Source: Escherichia coli O157:H7 (lineage in GTDB: Bacteria; Pseudomonadota; Gammaproteobacteria; Enterobacterales; Enterobacteriaceae). Taken from it: a stretch of 64,000 nucleotides of DNA. Location of the stretch: assembly GCF_013167455.1 (NCBI RefSeq), contig NZ_CP038328.1. One strand, 5' to 3'. Below, piece after piece: positions 4,417 to 6,347 of the stretch. The position numbers were made by a program, and so were the translations under genes. The notes below the pieces were generated by a model. It had not been told where the DNA came from. It searched no databases and worked only from the letters and a program-made list of their open reading frames with translations. Every line of letters begins with the position of its first letter. Within the stretch, counting starts at the first letter, position 1.

Positions 4417-4569
4417 ATGGATACTATCGATCTTGGCAACAACGAATCTCTGGTATGTGGCGTGTTTCCCAATCAGGACGGCACATTCACCGCCATGACG
4501 TATACCAAAAGCAAATCGTTTAAAACCGAAGCTGGCGCACGTCGCTGGCTTGCCAAAAATACCAGCTAA
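4417..4569 (+). CDS. ydaF: small Rac prophage protein
   Basis: 50 aa MDTIDLGNNESLV...; SD AAGGGGA upstream; first gene after the PL-like promoter. Confidence 0.6.
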   Translation: MDTIDLGNNESLVCGVFPNQDGTFTAMTYTKSKSFKTEAGARRWLAKNTS

Positions 4570-4767
4570 ACCATTTATTGGATTAATTCAATATTCTTGC
4601 TGTAGGGGTATAGCCGAGGCCACCAAAGCCCGGAGGTGGTGAAATAAAACCGGGCACAACACGAAGGCGCATTTCCGATATCCATAAAGAGTCGGTCTTG
4701 TCTGTTAAATTTAAATGGTGGGAGTGCGCCTCCGGTTGTAAATAACGACATTGCTGTGTGTAGTCTT

Positions 4768-4811
4768 GGCGGCATCAGTTCTACTCCGTGGCTGCCCTGC
4801 CGCCCCTTTTT
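4768..4811 (+). terminator. candidate intrinsic terminator in the early-left leader
   Basis: GGCGGCA (4768-4774) pairs TGCCGCC (4798-4804), then CCTTTTTAAA. Confidence 0.4.
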
Positions 4812-5085
4812 AAAGTGAATTTTGTGATGCGGTGAATGCGGCTGAGCGCACGCGGCACAGTTAAAAGCATCAGTGTTATGGGTGGATTATCCGGCGTTAA
4901 TTGTTAACTGGTTAACGTCACCTGGAGGCACCAGGCACCGCATCAACAAAGTTCACTTCAGTGATGAAAGGTGAGAGAAAATGTTGGATGTAGCTATTGA
5001 AAACCAGAACGGGTGGAATTATAGTGCACCTGCACCTCATAAAACGGGTGCCGGGATTTGCACCCCGATGATCACTAGAGCGCAT

Positions 5086-5108
5086 AACCGCGCCAAAGCG
5101 GTTTTTTT
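5086..5108 (+). terminator. candidate intrinsic terminator in the early-left leader
   Basis: AACCGC-GCCAAA-GCGGTT followed by T7. Confidence 0.45.
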
Positions 5109-5274
5109 ATGCGTAAAGCGCAGCCACATTCAGATTATGGTGGGGCGTATGGGGCCGTTTTCGGGCGGGCCGGATTCTCTAGTGACCGGTAGTGCAAACC
5201 CTGTACGTCTCACCACCCATGAGATTTGCACCTCCGGTGGTGAGTTTACCAACTTATCACTAGAGGCTGCCATC

Positions 5275-5829
5275 ATGGCTACTATCCCTACCCTTTCTCA
5301 CCCTGACGTAACCATCGAAAATGGTCGTGCTGTCACTACGTCTGTTGCAGTTGCAGAGTTTTTCCGCAAGCTGCATAAAAACGTCATTCAAAAAATTGAA
5401 GCTCTGGAATGTTCCTCAGAATTCACTGAGCTTAATTTTAAGCCAAGTGAATACACCGACTCAACCGGGCGCAAACTCCCAATGTACCAAATCACCAAAA
5501 ACGGCTTCGTTTTCCTGGTGATGGGTTTCACTGGCAAAAAAGCCGCTGCATTCAAAGAGGCCTACATCGCTGAGTTCGACCGCATGGAAGCAGAGCTACG
5601 CCAGAATAATACCACTCCCACAAACAAAATCATTCCGGGCGATGGGCGCACTCTGGTTGTTCGCTTCGACAAATTCGGCAACGTCGAATTCACTGAAACC
5701 GTTCCTGATGGCGCTCTCGTCTGTACCCTGGACACTTTCCGCCTTTATCTGGAGAAACAGGGCTGGACTCTTGTAAACCGAAGCGCAATTAAAAATATGA
5801 CCGTCGAGCAGTTGCTGAGTATTAAATAG
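5275..5829 (+). CDS. Rha-family phage regulatory protein
   Basis: 184 aa from ATG 5275 (SD AGAGG 8 nt upstream); N-terminal Rha-like pattern VTTSVAVAEFF..HKNV...LMGFTG recognised from memory; the ORF is open from 4981 but the upstream 98 codons look non-coding. Confidence 0.75.
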   Translation: MATIPTLSHPDVTIENGRAVTTSVAVAEFFRKLHKNVIQKIEALECSSEFTELNFKPSEYTDSTGRKLPMYQITKNGFVFLVMGFTGKKAAAFKEAYIAEFDRMEAELRQNNTTPTNKIIPGDGRTLVVRFDKFGNVEFTETVPDGALVCTLDTFRLYLEKQGWTLVNRSAIKNMTVEQLLSIK

Positions 5830-5875
5830 TTTTCTGGAATTTTCTTAATACGAGAAATTTATTAAGGAGATAATT

Positions 5876-6097
5876 ATGATTGCTCATCACTTCGGAACTG
5901 ATGAAATACCACGTCAGTGTGTGACTCCTGGCGATTATGTTCTTCATGAAGGTCGGACATATATCGCCTCGGCAAACAATATTAAAAAGCGAAAACTTTA
6001 TATTCGTAGCCTGACTACAAAAACATGCATTTCTGACTGCATGATTAAAGTCTTCCTCGGTCGTGATGGTTTACCTGTAAAGGCGGAGTCATGGTGA
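5876..6097 (+). CDS. kilR: Rac KilR-like cell-division inhibitor
   Basis: 73-aa ORF with AAGGAG SD; position upstream of ydaE and recE as in Rac. Confidence 0.7.
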
Positions 6098-6267
6098 TGA
6101 CTAAGAAAATAAAATGTGCTTACCACCTTTGCAATAAAGGAATTGAAGAAAGCAAAAGTATTAAAAGACCACTTCATTTCATGCGTGGAGTTATCCCAAC
6201 GACGGAAATGAAAAAATATTGTAGTGAAAATTGTGCCGAAAAAGACCAGATGGCACACGAACTTTAA
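6097..6267 (+). CDS. ydaE: Rac YdaE-like small zinc-binding protein
   Basis: 56 aa [12 protein letters not shown]...CSENCAEKDQMAHEL; ATG overlaps kilR stop; below the ORF-track length cut-off. Confidence 0.7.
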   Translation: MTKKIKCAYHLCNKGIEESKSIKRPLHFMRGVIPTTEMKKYCSENCAEKDQMAHEL

Positions 6268-6347
6268 CTAACTGACTATTCGAAACTGAATTTATGCCAG
6301 CAATGGCAGGGGTTCGCTCAACCTTAAAATAGTTATGAGGTTTATCA

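Follow-up and report, generated by a model that had tools for sequence, protein, structure and literature searches.

The Rac prophage of Escherichia coli K-12 is a 23-kb remnant whose leftward operon, according to the annotation of MG1655, has the order racR, ydaG, ydaF, sieB (opposite strand), the small RNA (sRNA) KilS, kilR, ydaE, racC and recE, the last encoding 866 amino acids (aa). KilS is a verified sRNA in the 5′ untranslated region of K-12 kilR (PMC8175672), and Rac-like prophages in ttcA of O157:H7 have been described (PMC4632033). The Qin prophage's dicBF operon (ydfA-ydfB-ydfC-dicF-dicB) likewise contains, in this order, a DUF1391 gene, a DicF-family RNA, a conserved block of ~150 nt and a small division inhibitor. 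Here, a stretch of 64,000 nucleotides from E. coli O157:H7 (hereafter the window, contig NZ_CP038328.1) was analyzed, in which the leftward operon of a Rac-like prophage carries a gene of the Rha family (rha), preceded by the RNA families IsrK and C4, in front of the cell-division inhibitor gene kilR.

RNA-controlled regulator genes of this kind are known from several elements. In the Salmonella prophage Gifsy-1 (isrK-orf45-anrP-isrJ), IsrK acts within the mRNA and in trans to open a structure that blocks translation of orf45, and AnrP is produced via translational coupling (Hershko-Shalev et al. 2016, PMC4825925). IsrK is equivalent to seqA and C4 to CI of P4, with related systems in P1, P7 and N15 (PMC3632133), and the family relation of P1/P7 C4, P4 CI and the N15 RNA has been stated (PMC3632133, PMC7313666).

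Mosaic structure of the leftward operon

The window was aligned to K-12 Rac by blastn, and homologous blocks of 76-95% identity in the leftward operon were found to alternate with unmatched patches (Table 1). At least five patches, namely the immunity genes, ydaG, sieB, the cassette with rha, and racC together with the 5′ end of recE, segregate independently, because other genomes show these differences in other combinations, and we read the arrangement as ordinary lambdoid mosaicism (probability roughly 0.8). Homologous blocks lie between the patches, and recombination with other lambdoid prophages can swap the patches. The order ydaF, KilS-type leader, kilR, ydaE and ydaT/U/V is the same as in K-12 Rac, whereas the window has an unrelated repressor/Cro pair, a DicF-like hairpin, an alternative RecE N-terminus and the IsrK-C4-Rha cassette before kilR, and lacks ydaG, sieB and racC.

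The Rac-like prophage of O157:H7 F6294 was colinear with positions 4413-6327 at 87.6% identity (ydaF, leader, cassette, kilR and ydaE); a gene like ydaG was also present, along with a true RacC (aa identity, 94.5%) and a RecE N-terminus of the K-12 type. In VL7S7, the window-type RecE N-terminus occurred in a Qin-like operon with an unrelated 98-aa open reading frame (ORF) at the racC position, and some records (H114) contained kilR-ydaE-ydaF without sieB and without Rha. Qin-like operons with dicB and lambda-like operons with kil had the cassette at the same relative position.

The distribution was determined in 5426 complete E. coli genomes with a coverage criterion of at least 80%. The K-12 arrangement was covered in 1372 genomes and the window arrangement in 51, of which 26 showed 100% identity across 2.3 kb; these were mostly Shiga toxin-producing E. 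coli (STEC) from cattle and humans, O157:H7 and O103:H2 among them. The cassette was covered in 397 genomes and the window-type recE 5′ segment in 814. The 5′ end of kilR was present in 1953 genomes, 115 of which had the Rha-to-kilR junction; in nearly all of the cassette-less copies listed, homology began exactly at the breakpoint (query position 127, the kilR Shine-Dalgarno sequence). K-12 Rac does not typify the Rac-like prophages of pathogenic E. coli, and kilR, which has been studied solely in the K-12 context, has another upstream regulatory landscape in ~6% of the genomes carrying it. The arrangement is a mosaic of curated families that is automatically annotated in dozens of genomes; a literature search on Rha in Rac-like prophages found no paper describing it.

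An initial annotation of the window had located ydaF, the Rha gene, kilR, ydaE and recE, all at coordinates that agreed with the annotation, the ORFs and Pfam, and had attributed to K-12 Rac a sieB gene, a racC gene and an 866-aa RecE, all of which are present in MG1655. Alignment with K-12, which it had proposed as the check, showed that gene content differs between the two prophages, and the reported absence of sieB and racC held: tblastn with K-12 SieB, RacC, YdaG, RacR and YdaS gave zero matches across the window. Its placement of sieB was only partly accurate, since sieB does belong to the K-12 operon but lies between ydaF and the leader, not at the site of the leader and rha (patch edges by blastn: window 4548 = K-12 1419180; window 4595 = K-12 1418625). 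The 554-bp K-12 segment also holds the last ydaF codons. The leader is mostly common to K-12, and rha belongs to a 907-bp insertion relative to K-12 at the leader/kilR junction. The rha gene is not a replacement of sieB; it comes within a self-contained cassette that brings along a predicted promoter and two regulatory RNAs. The module exchange that had been suggested is therefore genuine as a module-level difference near the immunity region, but it consists of several patches and not of one exchange. The initial annotation had mentioned neither the missing ydaG nor the unrelated repressor/Cro pair.

Two other histories were weighed. A single recombination that swapped the sieB-to-racC part of a K-12-like Rac for a foreign Rha block would agree with the location of all differences within ~3.3 kb adjoining the immunity region, and with the resemblance of positions 4766-5816 (DicF hairpin to the end of rha) and 6346-6800 (recE 5′ end) to Qin-like or other lambdoid prophages. 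However, the intervening kilR-ydaE block and the leader are 91% and 87% identical to K-12 Rac, F6294 joins the cassette with racC and a K-12-type RecE N-terminus, many genomes with ydaF-Rha-kilR-ydaE diverge past position 6327 (H267-H289), and the Rha-to-kilR junction occurs in 115 genomes while the full arrangement occurs in only 51; we regard a single exchange as highly improbable. Alternatively, the cassette may be ancestral and may have been lost by deletion from the decayed, cryptic K-12 Rac, a history for which we would give less than even odds. The 23-kb size of the K-12 remnant against the ~45 kb of the complete-looking window prophage, the same relative site (DicF-type RNA, conserved block, then inhibitor) in Rac-, Qin- and lambda-like operons, and the lack of transposon-like ends are consistent with loss, yet Rha stands upstream in only 115 of the 1953 genomes with the kilR 5′ end. 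Moreover, because homology ends exactly at the kilR Shine-Dalgarno sequence in nearly all cassette-less copies listed, one old, clean polymorphism that recombination has spread would account for the data as well as repeated loss does. Under the mosaic reading, too, the cassette may have been inserted here or deleted in the K-12 lineage.

As for the remaining patches, ydaF is the first gene of the leftward operon in the window, K-12 ydaG being missing upstream of it. The window prophage is probably heteroimmune to K-12 Rac, because its repressor/Cro alleles are unrelated to RacR/YdaS. The segment at 6328-6679 has no ORF in the gap ahead of recE and codes for the alternative RecE N-terminus: from residue ~58 onward the window RecE is 85% identical to residues 50-866 of K-12 RecE, which aligns from residue 50 only, and phrog_607 matches the window RecE from profile position 1. 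Positions 2429-2934 (5′ part of a ydaU-like gene) were also without a blastn match to K-12.

Table 1. Coordinates of features in the window (blocks and patches from blastn against K-12 Rac; identities to K-12)
Feature	Position	Strand	Description
Homologous block	842-2428		92%
Homologous block	2935-3361		93%
Cro-like gene	3352-3594	minus	divergent from repressor-like gene
Patch 1	3362-4252		repressor and Cro-like genes; no blastn match
Repressor-like helix-turn-helix gene	3691-4110	+	139 aa; Pfam HTH_3; racR position
Homologous block	4253-4404		76%
Patch 2, ydaG segment			8 bp; 149 bp in K-12
Homologous block, ydaF	4413-4548		83%
ydaF (DUF1391)	4417-4569	+	Pfam DUF1391, 100.7 bits; 88% aa identity to K-12 YdaF
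Patch 3, sieB segment	4549-4594		46 bp; 554 bp in K-12
Homologous block, leader	4595-4958	+	87%; in K-12 contains KilS and continues directly into kilR
DicF-family sRNA	4755-4805	+	Rfam DicF (RF00039), 54.7 bits, gathering score 48
Structured non-coding block	4813-4958	+	146 nt; minimum free energy -61.2 kcal/mol, z -5.4
Patch 4, cassette	4959-5865	+	907 bp; 8 bp (GTAAAAAT) in K-12; between conserved leader and kilR Shine-Dalgarno; promoter, IsrK, C4, rha
Predicted IsrK promoter	4997-5025	+	TTGAAA, 17 nt, TATAGT; 6 nt before IsrK 5′ end
IsrK sRNA	5032-5108	+	Rfam isrK, 68.6 bits, gathering score 50
Target a1, in IsrK	5057-5063		TTTGCAC
Target b1, in IsrK	5072-5080		TCACTAGAG
C4-type antisense RNA	5133-5220	+	Rfam C4 (RF01695), 78.1 bits, gathering score 45; full length 1-87
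orf45-like frame	5137-5274	+	AUGs at 5137 and 5149 (12 nt apart); overlaps C4; in frame into rha, no stop
C4 segment b′	5177-5185		CTCTAGTGA; loop of hairpin 2
C4 segment a′	5192-5198		GTGCAAA; multiloop
Target a2, downstream of C4	5225-5231		TTTGCAC
Target b2, downstream of C4	5257-5266		TCACTAGAG(G); G-U pair at 5266
rha (Rha family)	5275-5829	+	184 aa; Pfam Phage_pRha (PF09669)
Homologous block, kilR-ydaE	5866-6327		91%
kilR	5876-6097	+	cell-division inhibitor; 94.5% aa identity to K-12 KilR
ydaE	6097-6267 (ORF from 6091)	+	73% aa identity to K-12 YdaE
Patch 5, racC and recE 5′ end	6328-6679		352 bp; 696 bp in K-12
recE	6348-9017	+	889 aa; start 80 bp past ydaE stop
Homologous block	6680-13000		95%
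xisR	10327-10566		recombination module
intR	10568-11803		recombination module
ttcA	from 11855		prophage integration site

The IsrK-C4-Rha cassette

Neither terminal repeats, nor transposon-like ends, nor a target duplication were found at the borders of the cassette by a repeat scan and junction alignment. The predicted IsrK promoter was the top sigma-70 match within positions 3300-6500 (10/12), and an intrinsic terminator of IsrK was predicted at 5086-5103 followed by a T-run. Segment a′ of C4 pairs perfectly over 7 nt with a1 and a2, and b′ pairs over 9-10 nt with b1 and b2, the latter overlapping the rha Shine-Dalgarno sequence GAGG (5263-5266), 8 nt ahead of the AUG at 5275. The 9-mer TCACTAGAG had 3 occurrences in the window, all within the cassette (0.07 expected).

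Seven loci (the window, the O157 Rac-like prophage, two Qin-like prophages, an O104:H4 lambdoid prophage, a Stx2a phage and a P2-like prophage) were aligned, and five different a′ and five different b′ sequences were found, with a1/a2 and b2 of the same locus matching in every case. Most non-cognate pairs were shorter; discrimination of b′ against the upstream targets was weak in four loci. A difference in specificity between alleles is also seen between the C4 RNAs of P1 and P7. In AVS0753 (L005, 4029-4347), C4 united the a specificity seen in the O157 Rac-like allele with the b specificity seen in VL7S7, and its targets matched both; this implies a putative recombination between the two C4 recognition determinants in that locus. 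In the P2-like prophage of O157:H7 strain 4276 (L008, 2461-2987), an IsrK/C4 pair with an a/b specificity of its own lies ahead of a "derepression protein" of 76 aa (Pfam PF25738). At least three protein families that are unrelated to each other, Rha, ORF6N/AnrP and Derepression, are therefore coupled to the RNA switch.

The cassette is an RNA-controlled regulator module, complete in itself, of the kind found in P1 (immI), P4, N15 and Gifsy-1 (isrK). The order IsrK then C4 upstream of anrP was confirmed in Gifsy-1, and the two loci share a promoter, a 77-nt IsrK with terminator, a C4-type RNA that overlaps a short frame whose two AUGs are 12 nt apart, complementarity of the middle of IsrK to the orf45/C4 region, and a regulator gene. 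They differ in the downstream protein (AnrP with an ORF6N domain in Gifsy-1, Rha with PF09669 in the window), in the end of orf45 (AUGA overlap in Gifsy-1, in-frame fusion to rha in the window) and in location (by antQ in the late region in Gifsy-1, in the early-left operon before kilR in the window); IsrJ was not found downstream of the window cassette with Rfam. In common with P1/P7 immI (c4-icd-ant; Citron and Schuster 1990), P4 CI/seqA and the N15 CA-RNA, the C4-family RNA would derive from the same transcript as its target; as in P1/P7, it has a′ and b′ segments and repeated targets flanking the RNA gene, and the downstream b target covers the ribosome-binding site. In contrast to P1/P7 immI, the window module would regulate Rha and not icd-ant, the upstream targets lie in the separately terminated sRNA IsrK, and the element that carries it is a lambdoid prophage that has a protein repressor, so that the module would be accessory and not the primary immunity system. 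As for the Qin dicBF operon, the same IsrK-C4-Rha cassette is inserted between the conserved block and dicB in Qin-like prophages of other strains, whereas the window has KilR instead of DicB, lacks ydfB/ydfC and has a KilS-like 5′ half of the sRNA.

The Phage_pRha domain of Rha scored 108.8 bits (curated cut-off, 29.9) over residues 21-105, followed by a variable C-terminal part. Its PHROG relatives (phrog_995, phrog_518 and anti-repressor families) are labeled transcriptional regulator or anti-repressor, and the anti-repressor PHROGs matched the Rha N-domain with E-values of 7e-29 to 1e-13. Only five of 655 phage records matched Rha over 80% of its length. Between the window and O157 Rac-like Rha, the N-parts were 74% and the C-parts 97% identical; between the O157 Rac-like and Stx2a phage Rha the values were 93% and 15%; because the N- and C-parts have discordant relatives, these values indicate apparent domain shuffling within rha. 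In all six Rha-type alleles, one of which has an insertion of 3 nt that keeps the frame, the orf45-type frame continued into rha without a stop, and a 230-aa Rha starting from the orf45 AUG at 5137 is therefore possible.

In RefSeq (PGAP), Rha is modeled as 282 aa starting from 4981, across the promoter, IsrK, the terminator and C4, and under that model the sequence past 4981 would be coding sequence and not regulatory RNA. The 100 codons upstream of 5275 are indeed free of stops (as are 65-116 in five other alleles), phrog_995 has ~100 additional N-terminal profile positions, and Pfam Phage_ASH hits the translated stretch 5137-5274 with 43.4 bits. Against these observations, two Rfam families with full-length structures scored above gathering in the same stretch, a near-consensus promoter and an intrinsic terminator were predicted inside the ORF, and the sites that vary are the pairing segments, with compensating changes in the RNA targets, and not synonymous positions. 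Furthermore, aa identity in the upstream frame was 28-80%, usually below that of the Rha N-domain (65-93%), one allele was frameshifted upstream of the orf45 AUG, and the Pfam Rha domain and other Rha proteins begin within ~20 residues of the AUG at 5275. The 282-aa model is accordingly extremely unlikely to be correct, and the Phage_ASH and extended Rha families probably contain C4/CI-type RNA genes read as protein; RefSeq and the PHROG/Pfam models take the IsrK and C4 RNA genes for a Rha N-terminus or an "Ash" protein.

Proposed control of rha and kilR

The cassette would be controlled as follows. Its own sigma-70 promoter would make IsrK, with transcription mostly stopping at the intrinsic terminator, and read-through transcripts would carry C4 and rha. 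The a′/b′ segments of C4 would pair with a2/b2 directly 5′ of rha, b2 covering the ribosome-binding site, by which Rha translation would be kept off. The a1/b1 segments of IsrK, as a second copy of the target, would compete for C4 or, as in Gifsy-1, would remodel the mRNA and turn translation on. C4 is thus most likely a repressor of rha translation and IsrK its competitor or an activator. Rha is most likely antirepressor-like or a transcriptional regulator of prophage immunity. No terminator-like site was found between rha and kilR in a terminator scan, and without a terminator there read-through would also express the division inhibitor.

Several points weigh against this scheme. The promoter, the RNA ends and the processing are predictions, and the orf45 frame runs into rha, unlike that of Gifsy-1, where the stop overlaps the anrP start, so that coupling may work by a mechanism other than that of Gifsy-1. 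Rha showed no similarity to Gifsy-1 AnrP with its ORF6N domain (BLASTP, E = 0.14), is not P1 Ant either, and was not related by sequence to any solved structure that we could detect. To our knowledge, Rha-family proteins have no well-defined biochemical function, and since Rha resembles neither AnrP nor P1 Ant, an antirepressor role is assigned by analogy only. Rha was also considered as an orthologue of AnrP, which was rejected for lack of homology (BLASTP and domain comparison).

The gene next to a Rha-type cassette was a division inhibitor in five of six loci (KilR family in four and DicB in one, a small sample), namely in L003, L005, L006, L007 and the window (5830-6097), which represent three prophage types; in the sixth, the next gene was YdaE-like. 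By analogy with P1 c4-icd-ant, IsrK-C4-Rha and the division-inhibitor gene could form one functional unit, a lambdoid counterpart in which the repressor-independent promoter PisrK, gated by C4/IsrK, would co-express a Rha-type antirepressor and KilR. We consider such a unit doubtful; if it existed, derepression of this or other resident prophages, Stx phages in STEC included, would be coupled to a division block, and co-control of antirepressor and division inhibitor by the cassette would matter for how prophages in STEC interact and are induced.

Leader RNA and extent of the prophage

What the initial annotation had called a structured leader contained three Rfam families above the gathering score, DicF, IsrK and C4. 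The DicF-like RNA corresponds to K-12 KilS and has a terminator-like 3′ hairpin (site 4788-4803). The sRNA at the KilS position (4718-4810) is chimeric, with a 5′ half like K-12 Rac KilS and a terminator hairpin like Qin DicF, and homology to Qin-like prophages begins inside it, at 4766. With the Rfam DicF model, K-12 Qin DicF scored 76.7 bits, and K-12 Rac KilS and the O157 Rac-like copy scored below gathering. Pairing with the ftsZ start region gave a duplex energy of -36.4 kcal/mol for the window RNA, a value matched by 10% of shuffles with a method that is not discriminating; K-12 DicF gave -38.5 kcal/mol (3% of shuffles) and KilS was no better than shuffles.

The structured non-coding block (4813-4958) hardly varied between Rac and Qin lineages, those of K-12 included, while the flanking genes diverge. 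Its predicted fold, far more stable than those of shuffled sequences, consists of a long closing helix with three internal hairpins. A match to Rfam STnc100 at 4795-4964 was below threshold (41.8 versus 47). The block was considered as an RNase III site that frees DicF, which was rejected because the published site lies 5′ of DicF (PMC10448788). Upstream of the AVS0753 cassette, PGAP annotates a "partial DicB", suggestive of a duplicated target, which is the conserved non-coding block.

Positions 1-11850 constitute the left arm of a Rac-like lambdoid prophage of ~45 kb integrated in ttcA. It shares with K-12 Rac and with Sp10 / CP-933R of O157:H7 the ttcA site and an intR-xisR-ydaC/RalA-ralR-recT-recE arm that is 95% identical. 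Insertion in ttcA with the IntR/XisR module (positions 6680-13000, 95% identical to K-12) and the recE-recT-ralR/RalA arm with kilR-ydaE-ydaF in K-12 order were both present, and RacR/YdaS, sieB, racC and ydaG were absent from the 64 kb by tblastn with the five proteins; the prophage is a Rac-like relative distinct from the K-12 element. Positions 4100-6400 were 100% identical to E. coli 2011C-4251 (STEC; human isolate, USA), whose prophage of ~45 kb extends from intR to three DUF1076 (NleG-type) genes adjoining uspF. The window prophage is full-length, unlike the K-12 Rac remnant, because lysis, terminase, portal, capsid and tail genes are present in 2011C-4251, and it differs from K-12 Rac also in its structural and NleG-type (DUF1076) genes.

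Beyond the window, ~33 kb more of the prophage was seen in L009 (NZ_CP027388.1, 982000-1028000), which holds hokD and genes for lysis, terminase, capsid and tail; a second antirepressor gene, frameshifted, lies in its lysis region, and three DUF1076 (NleG-type effector) genes adjoin uspF. The RalR/RalA type I toxin-antitoxin pair is kept in the window at 10069-10247 (minus strand) and 9837-10070 (RalA, 219 bits). Outside the prophage, chromosomal RNA features were found at 14557-14674 (FnrS), 18052-18147 (McaS) and 23133-23249 (ALIL pseudoknot), the last being a mark of an IS3-family element.

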